A stretch of 64,000 nucleotides of DNA from Candidatus Hecatella orcuttiae (GCA_002011035.2 MTLY02000001.1:224001-288000); one strand, 5' to 3'. Positions 16,601 to 52,670 are shown, counted from the first letter of the stretch. Made by a program: numbers and translations. Notes: generated from the letters alone by a model not told the origin.

Positions 16601-16909
16601 ATGGCGGAAATCTGTCAAATATGCGGGCTGCCTAAAGACCTTTGTGTATGCTACGAGATAAGTAAGGATCAACAGAGAATAAAAGTTCGCTTAGAAAAGA
16701 GAAAATGGAACCGCCCTGTCACCGTCATCGAAGGGCTGGATGAAAAAAGCGTTGACCTAGGGAAGCTGGCTGCTGAGTTGAAGACTTATTGCGCCTGTGG
16801 AGGGACTTTTAAAAACAGCCAAATTCTCCTCCAAGGAGACCATCGAGAGAAAACCAAGGAAAAACTTGTCATGATGGGTTTCCCTGAAGGAAACATCGAA
16901 GTCCGATGA
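16601..16909 (+). CDS. Translation initiation factor aIF1 (SUI1)
   Basis: ICGLPKDLCVC zinc knuckle, LKTYCACGGT, LQGDHR. Confidence 0.95.
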   Translation: MAEICQICGLPKDLCVCYEISKDQQRIKVRLEKRKWNRPVTVIEGLDEKSVDLGKLAAELKTYCACGGTFKNSQILLQGDHREKTKEKLVMMGFPEGNIEVR

Positions 16910-45401: not shown

Positions 45402-45686
45402 TTATCGCCTCCTCCTCCGGAGTTCTTGAAGTAGTTCCTCCAGTTTTATTCCTTTGAAGACCAGTAGCACCCAAGTGTGGAACACTAGGTCGGCGGCTTC
45501 ATGAACTATCTCCTGCCTTTCTCCTCCCCGAGCCGCCTTCACCAGCTCTTGGGCTTCCTCCTTCACCTTGCCCAGAACCTTGTCCACTCCTCCTTTTAAG
45601 AGGCTTGAAACATAGGAGCCGGGTTTGGGCCTGTGCCTCCGGTCTTCGATGACCCGGTAGACTTCGGATAGAACCTCCAAACTCAC
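45402..45686 (-). CDS. hisE: Phosphoribosyl-ATP pyrophosphohydrolase
   Basis: SYV..L, KVKEEA, EAADLVFH. Confidence 0.92.
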   Translation of the reverse strand: MSLEVLSEVYRVIEDRRHRPKPGSYVSSLLKGGVDKVLGKVKEEAQELVKAARGGERQEIVHEAADLVFHTWVLLVFKGIKLEELLQELRRRRR

Positions 45687-46996
45687 CGACGTCGGCCTCC
45701 CTTTCGCCCTTTGAATCTTTTCTCCACCGCCAGCCCATGGGCTGGAAGCCCTTCCGCCTCAGAGAAAGCCTTCACCGTCTCCCTCAGCCTCTTCAGTCCT
45801 TGGGGAGTGAGGTACTCCACGTTGATGGCTTTCATGAAGTCGTAGACCCAGAGGCCTGAACTGAACCGCGCTACTCCTCCCGTTGGGAGCACATGGTTTG
45901 ACCCTACAGCGTAATCCACTGCCGGAGTGGGCGTGGAGGCTCCAAGGGAAACGGATCCCGCGTTGGTGATCATGGAAACAAACTTCTCCGGCTTCCTGCA
46001 GAGGACCTCCAAATGCTCCGGGGCGAAGGTGTTGATGAACTCAGCTGCCTGAGCCGGGCTGTCCGCTAGGAGGAGGACTCCTGACCTTTCCAAAGCCTCT
46101 TCCAACACGGTTTTCCTCAGCCCTTGAGAGGCGTAGGTTCGAAGTTTTTCCCCCACCTTCGCAGCCAATCTCCCGTCTGTAGTGACCAAGATGGGTACGG
46201 CAAGGGGGTCGTGCTCCGCCTGGGAAATCAGGTCCACCGCCACAAGTTCAGGGTCAGCGGAGCTGTCGGCGAAGACCACCAGCTCCGTGGGGCCGGCGGG
46301 GAAGTCGATTCCCACCTCTCCGTAGACCAGCATCTTGGCCGCGGTGACGTAGACGTTTCCCGGCCCTAGGATCTTGTCAACCTTTGGAATCGTCTGGGTG
46401 CCGTAGGCCATGGCACCGACAGCCTGCACTCCACCCACCTTGAAGACCTCCTTCACCCCAGCTACATCCAAAGCCACAAGGGTGGCTGGGTTGATTCTCC
46501 CGTCTGGGGCAGGAGGCGTGCAGGCGACCAGCCTCCGAACTCCCGCCACCTTGGCTGGGATGGCCAACATGAGGGCGGTGGAAGGATAGGCGGCTTGGCC
46601 TCCGGGAACGTAGAGCCCCACCGTTCCCAGAGGACGGAAGACCTGCCGAACGTAGACTCCTGCGGTTTTCTTGAGGACTTTGCTCTTGGGCAGCTGTTTC
46701 CTGTGGACCTCCCGGATGTTGGACGCAGCCTTTTTTATCGCCCTGAGCATTCTGCCTCCCACTTTTCCGTAGGCTTTGGCGACTTCGAAGGGCTTAACCT
46801 GCAGCTCCTCCGCCGTGATTTCAACTCTGTCGTAGAGTTTCGCATATTCGACGACGGCCTCGTCGCCTTTCAGCTTCACCGCTTGGAGGATTTCCTCCAC
46901 CTTGCCTTTTACGAGTTGAAGGCTGAACCTGTTTCTCTGGATGAGTCTGCTCAAAGCCTCAGGGCTTAGGTCTTTTATTCGAACAGGCCCTAGCAT
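45683..46996 (-). CDS. hisD: Histidinol dehydrogenase
   Basis: YVPGG, GPGN, QAEHD, APEHL, GSNHVLPT. Confidence 0.95.
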   Translation of the reverse strand: MLGPVRIKDLSPEALSRLIQRNRFSLQLVKGKVEEILQAVKLKGDEAVVEYAKLYDRVEITAEELQVKPFEVAKAYGKVGGRMLRAIKKAASNIREVHRKQLPKSKVLKKTAGVYVRQVFRPLGTVGLYVPGGQAAYPSTALMLAIPAKVAGVRRLVACTPPAPDGRINPATLVALDVAGVKEVFKVGGVQAVGAMAYGTQTIPKVDKILGPGNVYVTAAKMLVYGEVGIDFPAGPTELVVFADSSADPELVAVDLISQAEHDPLAVPILVTTDGRLAAKVGEKLRTYASQGLRKTVLEEALERSGVLLLADSPAQAAEFINTFAPEHLEVLCRKPEKFVSMITNAGSVSLGASTPTPAVDYAVGSNHVLPTGGVARFSSGLWVYDFMKAINVEYLTPQGLKRLRETVKAFSEAEGLPAHGLAVEKRFKGRKGGRRR

Positions 46997-47001
46997 AGCG
47001 G

Positions 47002-47769
47002 CTACCCCCTAGGCGGCCTCACGGGGACACCTAGCTTCATCAACTCCCTCTTTATGTCCGCCACGGTATACTGCCGGTAGTGGAACACGGAGGCCGCTAG
47101 GGCGGCGTCGGCTTTTCCCTCAGTTAAGGCTTGGTAGATGTGCTGGGGTTCCCCAGCGCCTCCGGAGGCTATGACGGGAATGTTCACCGCTTCGGCGACG
47201 GCTCTGGTAAGTTTTATGTCGTAGCCAACTCTCGTCCCGTCGGCGTCCATGCTGGTGAGAAGGATTTCCCCGGCTCCCAGCCTTTCCACTTTCTTAGCCC
47301 ACTCCACCGCGTTGAGGCCTGTGGGAGTGCGTCCTCCGGTGATGTAAACTTCCCAGAAGCTCTCCCTCACATAGAGGGCGTCGATGGCTACCACGATGCA
47401 CTGGCTTCCGAATCTTTCCGCTCCCTTCCTCACTATTTCAGGGTCTCTGACCGCGGCGGTGTTGATGGAAACCTTGTCGGCTCCCGCCTCCAAGAGCGCT
47501 TCCATGTCTTCCAAACTCCGAACCCCGCCTCCCACCGTGAAAGGTATGAAGAGGTTTTCCGCCGTCTTCTTCACCACGTTGACCATGGTGGCTCTTCCCT
47601 CCGGAGAGGCGCCAACGTCCAAGAAAACCAGCTCGTCGGCTCCCTGCTCATCGTACATCAGAGCCAAGGCTGGAGGGTCTCCGGCATGGCGGAGTCCCTT
47701 GAAGTGGATGCCTTTGACGACGACTCCGTTGAGGACATCGAGGCATGGGATTATGCGCTTGGTTAACGT
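47002..47769 (-). CDS. hisF: Imidazole glycerol phosphate synthase cyclase subunit (inferred ACG start)
   Basis: The in-frame extension beyond the track ORF reads [20 protein letters not shown], the HisF N-terminus; also GADELVFLD and TSMDADG. Confidence 0.92.
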
Positions 47770-48360
47770 CTACAAGACCCCCTTGAGGCTGGGCGGCTTT
47801 TTCTCCTCCGCCTCCCTCAACCTCGCTGCCTCTGCCAATGCTCGGCCTAAGGCCTTGAAGGCAGCTTCAGCCTTGTGGTGACTGTTTAAGCCGCGGATGG
47901 CTACGATATGCAGGTTGAAGCGGCCTCCTTCCGCCAGCGACCTGAAAAAGTGGTCCACCATCTCGGAGGAAAGCTCCCCCAGCTTCGGCTCCTTGAACCT
48001 CAGGTTGGAGCGGTAGTAGGGTCTCCCTGAAAGGTCTATGGAGACCATTATCAGGGCGTCGTCCATGGGTAGGACGGCGCTTCCGAAGCGGTTGATTCCC
48101 TTCTTGTCGCCGAGGGCCTTATCCAAGGCCTGCCCTAGGACCAAGCCTAAGTCCTCCACCATATGGTGGTCGTCGTAGACGGGGCCTTTTTCTTCGGCTG
48201 AGGCTTCGAGGGTGAAGGAGCCGTGGAAGGCCATGGACCTAAGCATGTGCTCTAAGAAAGGCTTGCCCACCTGCAGCTTAACCTCTCCGGGCTTGTCGAG
48301 GTTGACCGCTACCTTGACGTAGGTTTCCTCCGTCTTCCGTTCAACCTTAGCCTGCCGCAT
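47770..48360 (-). CDS. hisB: Imidazoleglycerol-phosphate dehydratase
   Basis: [29 protein letters not shown]. Confidence 0.95.
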
Positions 48361-49075
48361 TCCTAACTATCTCCTTCGCTTCCTTTAACGTAAAGACTCC
48401 CTCATATAAGGCCCTTCCAACCACAGCGCCCCAGACTCCCGCCTTTGCCAAGTGGAGGAGGTCTTGAAGGGAGGACACTCCACCCGCGTAGATGACGGGT
48501 TTATCCGTAGAGTCTACAACCTTTCTAACCAACCCCGTATCCAGTCCGCTTAACGTCCCTTCCACATTCACATCCGTGTAGAGAAAAGCCGCCACCTCCT
48601 GCCGGGTGAAGAACCGTATGAGGTTGAAGGGGGAACCTGCTGCCTCTGCAGTCCAGCCTCTGGTCACCACCCTCCCCCCTCTGGAGTCTAAGGCCACGAT
48701 AACCCGGTCGCCGCCTACACGGTTTAGGAAGACTGAAATCGCCTGAGGTCTTTCCACGGCGACGGTTCCCAGGATAACCCACCGAGCCCCCGCCTCCACC
48801 AGTTCCCGGGCGTCCTCCACCCGCCTGATGCCGCCGCCTACTTCCACAGGGATGCGGAGGCTTCTGATGATTTTTTTCACGGTTTCCCTGTTTTTCCTGC
48901 TGCCTGTGAAGGCCGCGTCTAGATCTACCACGTGGAGAATTTCCGCTCCTTCCGCTTCCCAAGCCTCAGCTACTTTCAAGGGATCGTCCGAGATCTCCCG
49001 CCCTGTTCCGGGTTTTCCTTGGACAAGTTTGACGCATTTTCCATCTTGGATGTCGACGGAGGGTATCACCTTCAT
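48347..49075 (-). CDS. hisA: ProFAR isomerase
   Basis: IPSVDIQDGKCV, HVVDLD, GGGIR, YAGGV. Confidence 0.94.
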   Translation of the reverse strand: MKVIPSVDIQDGKCVKLVQGKPGTGREISDDPLKVAEAWEAEGAEILHVVDLDAAFTGSRKNRETVKKIIRSLRIPVEVGGGIRRVEDARELVEAGARWVILGTVAVERPQAISVFLNRVGGDRVIVALDSRGGRVVTRGWTAEAAGSPFNLIRFFTRQEVAAFLYTDVNVEGTLSGLDTGLVRKVVDSTDKPVIYAGGVSSLQDLLHLAKAGVWGAVVGRALYEGVFTLKEAKEIVRNAAG

Positions 49076-49098
49076 CGGCTGGGGGCGCTTCCCTTCTT

Positions 49099-49969
49099 TC
49101 ACGGGACAACCCTCTCCACGGGTAGGACTATGATGTCTCTGGCTCCAGCCGTCTTAACCGAGCTTATGACATGGGGGATTTCCCCCTCCTCGACAACAGA
49201 GTACACCTCCCACATGGGGACGGGAGCCTCAACCTTCGCCAACGTGGGGCCGCCCATGGAAGGGAGGACACCTAGAACCCGCTGCAGAGCTTCTTCGGGA
49301 ACGTTCATCATCAGGAGCTTCTTTTTTCTAGCCATTAAAACACTTCGGAGAGCGGTGGTGATTTCCTTTATCTTCTCTCCTTTCTCCGCCAAGGCCTTCT
49401 TGTTGACTATTAGCCTAGCCGAGGACCTCAGAACCTCCTCCACAATCCTCAGACCGTGAATTTTCAAGGTGGCCCCGGTGTCGACGATGTCTAACACAGC
49501 CTCTGCCACATTCATAAGGGGCGTGATCTCTACGGCTCCTGAGACCTTCACTATCTTAGCCTTCATACCTTTAACCTTGAGGTAGTTGCCGGCTATGGAA
49601 GGATATTTGGTGGCAATTCTAGTCTGAGCGGTTAGGTTTCGGGGAGACTCTATCCCTGACTCTTCAGGGGCGGCTAGAACTATCCGGCAGCCTCCGAACT
49701 CCAAGTCAAGAAGCTCAGCCACTTCCGCTCCGCTTTCCACGACGTAATCGTAACCTGTGACGCCCAAGTCTACTGCTCCTCCTTCCACCAACGTCGGTAT
49801 GTCCGAGGCTCTGGCTAGGACTATGGAAAGCCAAGGAATCACCGTGGATAGGTAAAGAGAGCGTGTTTTCCAGTTTGATGGCGCTAGGCCTGCTTTCGTT
49901 AAGAGTCTGACGGAGGGCTTGTGAAGGCGGCCTTTGTTGGGTATGGCGATGGTTATTCGGATTTTTCAT
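49099..49969 (-). CDS. hisG: ATP phosphoribosyltransferase, long form; the ATG at 49969 is out of frame with the body, which opens at 49965
   Basis: In-frame KIRITIAIPNKGRL upstream of the track ORF; RASDIP, DLGVTG, IATKYP, DIVDTG and a C-terminal regulatory domain. Confidence 0.88.
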
Positions 49970-49989
49970 CCCTTCTTGTGGGAAATTTG

Positions 49990-50003
49990 TGGGTTTAAAC
50001 CCA
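49990..50003. promoter_or_regulatory. Perfect 14-bp palindrome TGGGTTTAAACCCA, candidate operator over the his TSS
   Basis: Lies about 25-35 nt downstream of the minus-strand TATA at 50026-50019, between hisG and a divergent regulator. Confidence 0.55.
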
Positions 50004-50018
50004 TAATATACACATAAG

Positions 50019-50026
50019 TATATAAA
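50019..50026. promoter_or_regulatory. Possibly bidirectional TATA box shared by the his operon and the regulator gene
   Basis: Reads TATATAAA on plus and TTTATATA on minus. Confidence 0.55.
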
Positions 50027-50056
50027 CTTTCCCGCACCAATACATAGTATTACAAG

Positions 50057-50473
50057 GTGAGAGCTACGCGCATCTCAGAAATCATCCGCATAGACAACCG
50101 AGGAAGAGTGATCATCCCCGCTTCCATCCGAGAAGCCTTCGGCCTGAGAGAAGAAGCCTATGTAATGTTGATGGCGGACTTGGAAAGCCAAGAAGTGAAA
50201 TTCATCCCCTTCGCCGACCCCGACGCCAAGCTCTTCGAAGTAAAACTCTCCCTCACCGACGTGCGGGGGGCGCTGGCCAAGGCAGCCATGAAAATGGCGG
50301 AGCTGGGAGTAGACCTCCTCTCCACCCAATCCAGAACCCTGCAAAGGGGAAAGTCCGCCGAGTGGCATGCCATCGTCGACCTCTCCAAGTGCAAGCTTAC
50401 GCTGGGCGAGCTTAAGCGCAAGCTGGTGGAAGAGGGAGCTGCTAAACACGTGGAGATAAAACAGTTCGGGTGA
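50057..50473 (+). CDS. AbrB/MazE/SpoVT-type DNA-binding protein with C-terminal ACT domain
   Basis: IDNRGRVIIPASIREAFGL AbrB motif; DVRGALAK..MAELGVDL ACT motif. Confidence 0.87.
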   Translation: MRATRISEIIRIDNRGRVIIPASIREAFGLREEAYVMLMADLESQEVKFIPFADPDAKLFEVKLSLTDVRGALAKAAMKMAELGVDLLSTQSRTLQRGKSAEWHAIVDLSKCKLTLGELKRKLVEEGAAKHVEIKQFG

Positions 50474-50558
50474 ATTTTGATTCGTGAAATGTAAAAGCTT
50501 AAAAAGTTAAGTTGTGATTATTATACCTACATTTGAAGAAGGTACGATGATTTAGAAA

Positions 50559-50732
50559 ATGAAAGTCAAATGCCCTGAATGCGGCGCGGAATTCGACGCT
50601 CCCGACGACGTGATAGTAGGGGAAATCGTCAGCTGCCCGGACTGCGGCTTAGAGCTTGAAGTCAGCAGCATCCAGTCTGGAAAAGTCGACGTTAAAATTG
50701 TCAGAATTTCCGGCGAAGACTGGGGGGAATGA
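50559..50732 (+). CDS. lysW: Amino-group carrier protein LysW (below the ORF track cutoff)
   Basis: MKVKCPECG...CPDCG...EDWGE, 57 aa. Confidence 0.96.
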   Translation: MKVKCPECGAEFDAPDDVIVGEIVSCPDCGLELEVSSIQSGKVDVKIVRISGEDWGE

Positions 50733-50735
50733 TCA

Positions 50736-51590
50736 GTCACCTCCATAGGCATCCTCTACGATCAGATCCGTTGGGAAGAAAAAGCCATAATCGAAACCGC
50801 CAAGTCTAGGGGAACACCTGTTAAGCTCTTAGACTCGAAATCGATGTTCTTCGAACTGGGAGCCCGGGAGCGCGGAGGAGAAAAATTCGCCGACATAATT
50901 CTCCAACGCTGCGTAAGCTATTTCAGAAACCTTCACCTCACCGCCCTCCTAGAGAAAAGAGGCTACACAGTCGTTAACCCTTACAAGGTTACCCAGCTCT
51001 GCGGCAACAAGCTTCTGACAACCCTCGCCTTGACAAAGGCTAAGATACCGACCCCTAAAACCTACGTAGCCTTCACCAAAGAGAGCGCGTTGGAAGCCTT
51101 GGATAAAATGGGCTACCCGGCGATGTTGAAGCCTGTGGTGGGAAGCTGGGGGAGACTCATCATCCCCTTGAAGGACAGGGAGACAGCGGGAGCCGTCTTG
51201 GAGGAAAGGGAGTACATGTTCCCCCTCTACCAAGTTTACTACCTTCAGGAAATGGTCAAAAGGCCGCCGAGGGACATCAGGGTCTTCGTCATCGGAGACG
51301 AGGCAGTGACAGGCATCTACCGTTATTCCTTCTTGGACATCAAGACCAACATCGCCCGGGGAGGAAAAGCTGAACCTTGCCGCATAACTCCTGAGCTTCA
51401 AGAGCTAAGCCTCAAGGCAGCGGAGGCTGTGGGCAGCGGAATTCTCGGAGTTGACATGATGGAAACCGATGAGGGAATCGTGGTACATGAAATTAACCAC
51501 ACCATCGAATTTCAGGCAACCGCCACGGTGACGAAGGTCAACATACCTAAATACATCGTAGGCTATTTGCTTAGAAAAGCCAGAAAATAG
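50736..51590 (+). CDS. lysX: LysW-ligase LysX/ArgX (RimK ATP-grasp); no canonical start for the conserved N-terminus
   Basis: In-frame VTSIGILYDQIRWEEKAI upstream of the track ORF; KPVVGSWG, RDIRV, NIARGG, HEIN. Confidence 0.9.
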   Translation, partial: VTSIGILYDQIRWEEKAIIETAKSRGTPVKLLDSKSMFFELGARERGGEKFADIILQRCVSYFRNLHLTALLEKRGYTVVNPYKVTQLCGNKLLTTLALTKAKIPTPKTYVAFTKESALEALDKMGYPAMLKPVVGSWGRLIIPLKDRETAGAVLEEREYMFPLYQVYYLQEMVKRPPRDIRVFVIGDEAVTGIYRYSFLDIKTNIARGGKAEPCRITPELQELSLKAAEAVGSGILGVDMMETDEGIVVHEINHTIEFQATATVTKVNIPKYIVGYLLRKARK

Positions 51591-51611: not shown

Positions 51612-52670
51612 ATGCTTCGAGTAGGCGTCATCGGAGGCTCAGGTTACACCGGAGGAGAACTTCTCAGGCTGCTTTTGGGCCACCCCCAAGTTGAAATAGC
51701 TCAGACAACCTCCAGAGAATACGGCGGCGAATACGTTTTCCGAGTTCACCCCAACCTCAGAGGGCTGACCAGCCTCCAGTTCGCCAAACCAGACTTGGAG
51801 AAGACGGTGAAGGAATGCGACCTTGTCTTCACGGCGACCCCCCACGGAGTTTCCTCCAAGCTTGTTCCCCGGCTGCTGGAGGCGGGGTTGAAGGTGATAG
51901 ACTTGAGCGCAGATTTCAGGCTGAAGAATCCTGAGGGCTACCCCCAATGGTACGGCTGGAGTCACCCTCACCCCGAACTGCTTCAGAAAGCCGTCTACGG
52001 CGTTCCTGAACTTCACCGGAGCGACATAGGGAAAGCTCAGCTTGTCGCTTGCCCGGGCTGCATGGCTGTGGCCAGCATTCTGGCTTTAGCCCCAGCGGCC
52101 AAAGAAAGGCTTTTCGAAGAGGACAAGGTTGTGGTCGACGTTAAGATCGGGTCTTCAGGAGCCGGAGCCAAACCCTCCCGGTCAACCCACCATGCTGAGA
52201 GAGCCGGCGTCATCCGGCCTTACAAGCCCACAGGTCACAGGCATACGGCGGAGATCGAGCAGGAGTTGAACTGGGTTGCAGGCTCCGGGGCGGTGAAGAT
52301 TTCCATGTCCGCCCACGCCGTCAACGTTGTGAGAGGCATCCTCGCCACCGCGCATCTTTTCCTGAAAGAGAAGATAGGGCTGGCGGAGGTTTGGAAAGCC
52401 TACCGGGGGTTCTACCAGAACGAGCCCTTCATCCGCTTGGTCAGGGATAAGAAAGGCCTCTACAAGCTTCCCGACCCCAAAACCGTCATCGGCTCCAACT
52501 TCTGCGATATAGGCTTCGACTTGGATAAGCATGTCAACAGGCTGGTGGTCTTGGGGGCTATCGACAACCTGATGAAGGGAGCCGCCGGCATAGCCGTTCA
52601 AAACCTTAACCTGATGATGGGCTGGGATGAAAGAACCGGGTTACTGCCGCCTGCCCTCTACCCTGTCTGA
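51612..52670 (+). CDS. lysY: LysW-aminoadipate/glutamate phosphate reductase (ArgC-like)
   Basis: GGSGYTG, DLSADFRL, ACPGC, DNLMKGAAG. Confidence 0.92.
   Translation: MLRVGVIGGSGYTGGELLRLLLGHPQVEIAQTTSREYGGEYVFRVHPNLRGLTSLQFAKPDLEKTVKECDLVFTATPHGVSSKLVPRLLEAGLKVIDLSADFRLKNPEGYPQWYGWSHPHPELLQKAVYGVPELHRSDIGKAQLVACPGCMAVASILALAPAAKERLFEEDKVVVDVKIGSSGAGAKPSRSTHHAERAGVIRPYKPTGHRHTAEIEQELNWVAGSGAVKISMSAHAVNVVRGILATAHLFLKEKIGLAEVWKAYRGFYQNEPFIRLVRDKKGLYKLPDPKTVIGSNFCDIGFDLDKHVNRLVVLGAIDNLMKGAAGIAVQNLNLMMGWDERTGLLPPALYPV

Follow-up and report, generated by a model that had tools for sequence, protein, structure and literature searches.

Three biosynthetic genes of 'Candidatus Hecatella orcuttiae', hisF, hisG, and lysX, have no ATG, GTG, or TTG ahead of their conserved N-termini, and the missing starts are probably explained by initiation at near-cognate codons throughout the lineage. 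The genes lie in a 64,000-nucleotide (nt) stretch of DNA (GCA_002011035.2, MTLY02000001.1:224001-288000), called the window below. They are intact. The analysis showed that the canonical start is absent from a correct DNA sequence, that the N-termini are conserved, that the trait occurs genome-wide, and that CTG and ACG are positionally enriched behind Shine-Dalgarno (SD) sequences. In the proposed mechanism, ATG, GTG, or TTG would be replaced in a few percent of the genes by a codon one base from AUG, where the ordinary initiator Met-tRNA (anticodon CAU), placed by SD contact, would begin translation, probably with reduced efficiency. Initiation at these codons, the use of methionine there, and its efficiency are what we infer from the sequence.

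The genome holding the window (G000; 1.75 Mb in three contigs, 97% complete) belongs to the Bathyarchaeia, 'Candidatus Hecatellales'. Coordinates without a prefix are window positions, and C1-C3 denote the contigs of G000. The locus consists of the his operon (− strand) and the start of a lysW-lysX-lysY cluster (+ strand). NCBIfam equivalog profiles were run on the stop-to-stop frames of the three genes. The open frame of hisF (47002-47769, −; 255 codons, between the in-frame TAG of hisB and the hisF stop) matched TIGR00735 with 377.5 bits (cut-off 294.55), residues 1-251 on profile positions 1-254 of 254. That of hisG (49099-49965, −; 288 codons, after an in-frame TGA) matched TIGR00070 with 204.3 bits (cut-off 75.75), residues 4-187 on positions 1-183 of 183, together with the HisG C-terminal domain. 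That of lysX (50733-51590, +; 285 codons, after the TGA of lysW) matched TIGR02144 with 314.9 bits (cut-off 275.6), residues 5-284 on positions 1-280 of 281. No internal stop was present over these 255-288 codons. The first in-frame canonical codons are TTG in hisF (47665-47667, −), 34 codons in, GTG in hisG (49840-49842, −), 41 codons in, and ATG in lysX (50844-50846, +), 37 codons in. A preliminary description of the window had already reported conserved N-termini without a canonical start, and this was borne out, the profiles being matched from position 1; its range of 34-40 codons holds for hisF and lysX, while hisG has 41 by this count. The context GG(G/A)ATGA-NNN-(A/G)TC that it gave for hisG (GGGATGA-AAA-ATC) and lysX (GGAATGA-TCA-GTC), neither ATG being in frame, was confirmed in the sequence. 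It had also judged sequencing error to be unlikely, with which the public contigs agree wherever they cover the sites.

An error of sequencing or assembly, which would make the three missing starts artifacts, is not credible, because the contigs of four public runs agree letter for letter. In Logan contigs of these runs, which come from four studies (X1, X5, X6, and X7), no other letters and no gaps were present over 47600-50900. The start sites of hisF and lysX were each covered by X1, X5, and X6, and that of hisG by X1, X5, X6, and X7. The contigs checked carried Illumina Nextera adapter ends, and the contigs that cover the sites had a mean word depth of about 10 to 292 (292× in X1); X1 is possibly the source sample, and rare variants may be lost in contigs. 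In addition, hisF and lysX differ from their relatives by substitutions, not by homopolymer indels.

The support for a near-cognate start is clearest in hisF. Its KRIIPCLDV segment, the Asp of which we take to be catalytic, lies before the first ATG/GTG/TTG and would be removed by a start at TTG. In all 19 relatives the first canonical codon was found at query-equivalent positions −3 to +1, in ten of them at position 1, which is the ACG directly after the TAG of hisB (hisB, 47770-48360, −; ACG, 47767-47769, −). For example, L044 has TAG-ATG where G000 has TAG-ACG, and in the alignment with the family member G002 the ATG of the latter maps onto the ACG. SD strength was calculated as the duplex energy with the tail of the 16S ribosomal RNA, which ends in GGATCACCTCCT. 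An SD-like AAGGGGGTC (47776-47784, −) in the 3' end of hisB precedes the ACG by about 6 nt, and the upstream anti-SD duplex reached −10.3 kcal/mol, compared with a median of −6.65 kcal/mol at supported normal starts. The gene is in the 62nd identity percentile of conservation. Taken together, the alignments and the duplex make it likely that hisF starts at the ACG at 47769-47767.

In hisG, the best candidate is ATC, codon 2 of the frame (49960-49962, −). All nine relatives have a canonical start, and in three of them (L007, L009, and L010) the ATG is aligned with this ATC. A conserved CCCAC motif precedes the ATC by 15 nt and the ATG of the relatives by 12-14 nt. The SD duplex of −5.7 kcal/mol is about the normal-start median, but 37% of internal codons reach −5 kcal/mol. 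We would give a start at ATC (49962-49960) roughly even chances. A +1 slip on ATG-AAA-A has a slim chance, and the rest falls to a start at ATA, codon 4 (49954-49956, −; duplex −4.7 kcal/mol, without alignment support), or to a silent gene. A second hisG of another subtype (C3:191403-192299; 36% identity, motif KGHLW) has an ATG start. Most relatives in the family have only the KGHLW subtype and a few have the subtype of the window; G000 and G006 have both.

The start of lysX is proposed to lie within its first seven codons (TCA GTC ACC TCC ATA GGC ATC, 50733-50753, +), with GTC (50736-50738), ATA (50745-50747), and ATC (50751-50753) as the candidates. A canonical start is present in 17 of 19 relatives, eight of which have TTG or ATG where G000 has TCA; the frame and length are the same as in the relatives, so no indel is involved. 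The other two relatives also lack a canonical start and have candidates ACG (in G001) and CTG (in G014). Residue 5 aligns with residue 2 of the crystallized Thermus LysX (3vpd_A, 1uc8_A), and the gene is in the 90th-96th identity percentile. A run of GGGGGG (50722-50727, +) at the end of lysW (50559-50732, +; Zn_ribbon_LysW, E 3.6e-15) stands at the place where the relatives have GGGGAG-AATGA-TTG, and this SD-like run is at the distance seen in the relatives. The duplex energies are −9.2 to −14.1 kcal/mol for codons 1-4 and only −5.7 kcal/mol for ATA. At GTC (codon 2), two of the pairs formed with the initiator would have to be non-standard, and ATA is the only AUG-near-cognate that would give a LysX of normal length.

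The genome was then scanned for the same trait. Stop-to-stop frames were taken from a simple, crude codon-usage gene finder, which called 1780 frames (92% of the genome) in G000. A codon-usage score of the pre-start region, tried as a finder, was too weak alone (only 2.07 for hisG). Reciprocal tblastn was run in all six directions between G000 and two partial genomes of the same family and different genera, G001 (1.06 Mb sample) and G002 (1.18 Mb sample). A gene counted as testable if its best alignment came within 10 residues of the first ATG/GTG/TTG. To be flagged, it needed 10 or more aligned residues ahead of that codon, with a summed BLOSUM62 score of 20 or higher, and the partner had to show no stop. 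The flagged genes numbered 48 of 912 testable genes in G000 (38/712 and 25/658 per partner), 32 of 665 in G001 (28/608 and 15/451), and 18 of 701 in G002 (15/642 and 12/504), i.e., 2.6-5.3% of testable genes. Within the window, only hisF, hisG, and lysX were flagged. Flagged genes were not clustered in the genome beyond chance (six neighbor gaps of at most 3 kb, null mean 4.03, P 0.21). By our estimate, three flagged genes within eight consecutive genes are expected about once or twice per genome at a 5% rate; given the genome-wide rate, three in 3.3 kb are within chance.

Flagged genes were as conserved as others (median identity to G001 51.8% vs 51.0%). Pfam was run on 23 of the 48 flagged G000 genes, hand-picked for high scores and short start zones. 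In 15 the domain begins before the first canonical codon, four had only far-downstream domains, which are uninformative, and four had no match. The early-domain cases include TFB (zinc ribbon 12-53, first canonical codon 22), fibrillarin (domain 13-237, codon 51), an exosome Rrp4/Csl4-type protein (ECR1_N 12-49, codon 47), a LeuA-type synthase (HMGL domain 22-280, codon 36), dihydroorotate dehydrogenase, an amino-acid kinase, AcnX, and Ham1. DNA topoisomerase VI subunit B (Topo VI-B), the primase small subunit, and A-type ATPase subunit D were flagged as well. Going by sequence motifs alone, the flagged set of G001 contains ribosomal proteins and a subunit of RNA polymerase.

The codons at the expected start position were then counted. 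The five near-cognates considered were CTG, ACG, ATA, ATC, and ATT, each one base from AUG. The mapped position was the codon aligned with the first canonical start of the partner. A single map was used for each gene, and mapping was possible in 62 of the 98 flagged genes; offsets −3 to +6 (n=526) served as the background. CTG or ACG occupied the mapped position in 14 of 62 genes (eight CTG, six ACG) vs 26 of 526 background codons (Fisher p 1.4e-5), and all five near-cognates in 20 of 62 vs 61 of 526 (p 5.6e-5). Short start zones, with at most eight codons from the stop to the conserved N-terminus, were found in 56 of the 98 flagged genes. At least one of the five near-cognates was present in 37 of these (null 20.8 ± 3.6; none of 5000 simulations reached 37) and CTG or ACG in 19 (null 6.7 ± 2.4; 0/5000). 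In the 37 short zones without CTG or ACG, ATA, ATC, or ATT was present in 18 (null 10.3 ± 2.7; 28/5000).

The SD signal singled out the same two codons. Median duplex energies were −6.65 kcal/mol at homology-supported normal starts (n=262) and −3.5 kcal/mol at internal codons (n=1310). In start zones, they were −8.1 kcal/mol for ACG (n=14), −8.3 kcal/mol for CTG (n=18), and −4.0 kcal/mol for other zone codons (n=362). In most contexts, GGTGA, GGAGG, or GAGGT was seen 5-9 nt before the ACG or CTG, and no shared motif besides the SD was found around the ACG/CTG sites in the contexts inspected. Among 155 homology-supported normal starts in G000, 66 are ATG, 59 TTG, and 30 GTG; TTG is nearly as common as ATG, which fits generally loose start selection.

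The prominence of ACG and CTG raises the alternative of site-specific C-to-U editing of the mRNA, by which ACG would become AUG and CUG would become UUG. In plant chloroplasts, AUG starts are created from ACG by such editing, and non-AUG starts occur there too; the likeness lies in a genomic ACG where the protein must begin. A single C-to-U change would turn the two codons with strong position and SD support into AUG and UUG, the latter being a common start (59 of the 155), and ATA, ATC, and ATT, which editing could not mend, are without such support. On the other hand, TCG and GCG are also mendable and were not enriched (TCG 2/62, GCG 0), no motif beyond the SD surrounds the sites, and editing could explain hisF only, not hisG (ATC) or lysX (TCA). 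Unlike in plant chloroplasts, no editing is known to us in archaeal mRNA, and no report of C-to-U editing of archaeal mRNA was found in the openly licensed PMC and bioRxiv literature. Editing is considered quite improbable; if true, Archaea would have their first mRNA editing system.

Several observations weigh against near-cognate initiation. A codon freshly mutated from ATG is near-cognate by construction, so its position alone is no proof of function. ATA, ATC, and ATT, which hisG and lysX would need, were not enriched at the mapped position (6/62 vs 35/526, p 0.26), and their median duplex energies in start zones (−4.0 to −4.7 kcal/mol, n=37) were no better than the background. In 19 of the 56 short-zone genes there is no near-cognate at all, and lysX in effect belongs with these. 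In lysX, the codon at the start of the relatives is TCA, not a near-cognate, and the SD-like run suits codons 1-4, all of them more than a single change away from AUG. The second hisG with its ATG means that the window copy could be under weaker constraint. The flag rates come from a crude finder and three genomes of one family, two of them partial. Finally, nine of the ten listed public runs contain the stretch wholly or partly, and none of them is recorded as RNA.

Some of these points would also suit a loss of the starts by mutation, in which the three copies are silent or nearly so and have taken the first step to pseudogenes, histidine and lysine being available or a paralog present. The relatives nearly all keep ATG/GTG/TTG (19/19 for hisF, 9/9 for hisG, 17/19 for lysX), the paralogous hisG has its ATG, TCA in lysX is two changes away from TTG at the old start, and the flagged rate of G000 is about twice that of G002 (0.053 vs 0.026). 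Decay is nevertheless improbable. The three frames have no internal stops and match their profiles end to end, and lysX is among the most conserved genes by its percentile. TFB, fibrillarin, Topo VI-B, the primase, and ATPase subunit D are in the same state, and a 97%-complete genome present at up to 292× is unlikely to live without them; since the genome cannot have silenced such genes, the lineage appears to initiate at non-canonical codons. Neutral decay that hit a 3-base target in 5% of the genes would predict many internal lesions, yet 92% of the genome is in long open frames. The one-step neighbors of GTG and TTG that are not AUG-near-cognates were not enriched at the mapped position (9/62 vs 116/526), and as these cannot pair with the initiator, this also argues against plain mutational decay.

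Another alternative is that translation begins at the out-of-frame ATG and shifts by +1 at once, on ATG-AAA in hisG and ATG-A-TCA in lysX. The ATG lies one base before the frame in both genes. Ahead of hisG, it (49969-49967) is followed by AAAAA (49966-49962; together 49962-49969, −), which would allow tRNA-Lys to re-pair perfectly one base on, after which ATC would be read; the product, MKIRITIAIPNKGRL, would resemble the N-termini of the relatives. This ATG also lies 25-30 nt after TTTAAA, roughly the spacing at which a leaderless transcript would be expected to start behind a TATA element, and it heads an 84-codon out-of-frame open reading frame (ORF). However, the ATG of lysX is merely formed by GAA, the last Glu codon of LysW, and TGA, GAATGA is also present in relatives with TTG starts, and a slippery site is lacking. 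NTGA ahead of the frame was found in 18/48 flagged genes and in 235/641 ordinary genes that have a canonical start nearby; it is no commoner in the former. No rare or stop codon occupies the A site to stall the ribosome, none of the nine hisG relatives is frameshifted, 17 of the 19 lysX relatives are unshifted with normal starts, and hisF has no out-of-frame start ahead of its frame. As an explanation of the missing starts, the shift is about as improbable as editing. GGRATGA as a shared +1 recoding signal was rejected, since it arises incidentally from GAA+TGA and from TGA stops.

The two mechanisms suggested in the preliminary description thus fared differently. The lineage does seem to initiate at near-cognate codons, with ACG well supported in hisF, ATC plausible in hisG, and GTC weak in lysX. 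Start-proximal +1 recoding as a mechanism shared by the genes did not stand, for the reasons just given. The proposed throttling of pathway entry steps is not supported, 48 of 912 testable genes, housekeeping genes included, being flagged, and the incipient pseudogenes under relaxed selection that were named there as the opposing case do not agree with full-length frames and the conservation of lysX.

In a further alternative, the upstream stop would be read through, giving a HisB-HisF fusion via TAG, with a pyrrolysine system, and a LysW-LysX fusion via TGA. Each of the two stops shares its frame with the gene that follows, the TGA following the terminal EDWGE of LysW; a tRNA with the anticodon CTA adjoins a gene for the PylS C-terminal domain (279 bits, over the cut-off); and the in-frame hisB-hisF TAG recurs in L043, L044, and L051. 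In these three, however, ATG/GTG/TTG comes right after the TAG, so the arrangement is independent of readthrough. TAG is an ordinary stop that ends 27% of the genes and is not enriched before flagged frames (8/48 vs 430/1729). A stop shared with the upstream gene is no more frequent among flagged genes than among the others (3/38 vs 64/712), hisG has no upstream gene, and LysW acts through a free C-terminal EDWGE end. Readthrough is accordingly rated as very improbable. Reinitiation after a shared upstream stop as a general cause was rejected on the same comparison and on that in G001 (3/28 vs 49/608). At G000:C1:349861-350806, aragorn placed a tRNA-Pyl (CTA) beside the PylS C-terminal-domain gene, and the genome seems to encode pyrrolysine.

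Possible causes of near-cognate initiation were looked for in the translation machinery. Loss of aIF1 was rejected, as the factor was found in 29 of the 31 genomes searched, G000 included (aIF1/SUI1 gene at 16670-16885, equal to G000:C1:240670-240885, +). Loss of the threonylcarbamoyladenosine (t6A) machinery was rejected as well: the Sua5 and Kae1 families, which we take to be this machinery, are present. A changed genetic code was rejected on the stops before the 48 flagged frames (19 TAA, 8 TAG, 21 TGA; gene ends 37/27/36%). The initiator tRNA (C3:12646-12724) looks ordinary, with a CAT anticodon, A1:U72, and a G:C-rich anticodon stem. A second initiator with another anticodon was not seen in a BLAST search with the initiator, which gave one other tRNA, also CAT; this is a weak negative, as aragorn finds only part of the intron-rich set. 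That second CAT tRNA (G000:C2:476948-477052) has an intron according to aragorn and shares 90% identity with the initiator over its 3' half.

Starts at CUG and AUU are rare curiosities in prokaryotes (table 11 class). They resemble the present cases in that single genes begin at CUG or AUU behind an SD, and differ in frequency, as 2.6-5.3% of the testable genes here are without AUG/GUG/UUG. In an excerpt of one study, 2 of 61,358 AUG starts switch to CUG and such genes are called 'few' (PMC5622118); ACG, prominent here, is not mentioned for rare starts in that excerpt. In eukaryotes, Met-tRNAi initiates at CUG, ACG, AUA, AUU, and similar near-cognate codons, according to the excerpted text (PMC3105428). 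The codon set, one base from AUG, is the same, with CUG and ACG best supported here. The differences are that the codons would here be the sole starts of ordinary, even essential, single-product genes, whereas in eukaryotes they give mostly minor N-terminal extensions or upstream ORFs, and that placement would here be by the SD and in eukaryotes is by scanning and Kozak context. The archaeal initiation machinery is described as eukaryote-type, with aIF1, aIF1A, and aIF2 (PMC6237735, in excerpt), and aIF1 reportedly selects against non-canonical starts (PMC6237735, PMC8211752, in excerpts). In ribosome profiling of Haloferax volcanii, about 30% of the putative alternative initiation sites were near-cognate and, in the passages available, were set aside as possible false positives (PMC7261190). 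As far as these passages go, this is an experimental hint that archaeal ribosomes initiate at near-cognates, at alternative or internal sites and not as sole starts of conserved genes. No published description of routine ACG/CUG starts in an archaeal lineage was found in openly licensed PMC and bioRxiv texts, subscription journals being outside the scope.

For annotation, gene callers that accept only ATG/GTG/TTG in archaea will cut 34-41 residues off HisF, HisG, and LysX, and about one gene in 20 of this genome will be cut likewise or missed. Such truncations and omissions distort metabolic reconstructions and protein-family alignments for very abundant, uncultured sediment archaea. If near-cognate initiation is true, a lineage with eukaryote-type initiation factors that routinely tolerates sole CUG/ACG starts, TFB and fibrillarin included, would be a natural system for studying start-codon stringency, and near-cognate starts may act as a built-in dial of the expression level.

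Two flagged genes stood out in the scan. A LeuA/homocitrate-synthase-type gene (G000:C3:630026-631585 and G001:C8:48342-49916) has a conserved KWGIILF extension before the HMGL domain. Neither genome has ATG/GTG/TTG before the domain, the first canonical codons being at 36 and 60, respectively, and in G000 an out-of-frame ATG with an A7 run is located just upstream. A conserved 136-residue protein without a Pfam match (G000:C1:328309-328719) has 31 of the 47 residues before its first canonical codon identical to G001; the codon matching the ATG of G001 is TCG, and neither CTG nor ACG is nearby.

The remaining genes of the locus are hisA (48347-49102, −), hisD (45683-46996, −), and a semialdehyde dehydrogenase gene (51612-52670, +). 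Between hisG and a divergent gene (50057-50473), the CCCAC region at 49976-50003 (−) reads TGGGTTTAAACCCA then CAAATTTCCCAC. The pattern CCCAC-AAATTT-CCCAC recurs upstream of hisG in six family relatives (L003-L007 and L013) and overlaps the TATA-like TTTAAA; the element is probably an operator. The neighboring gene encodes 138 residues and has a weak AbrB/MazE-type Pfam match (E 6e-4, below the cut-off).

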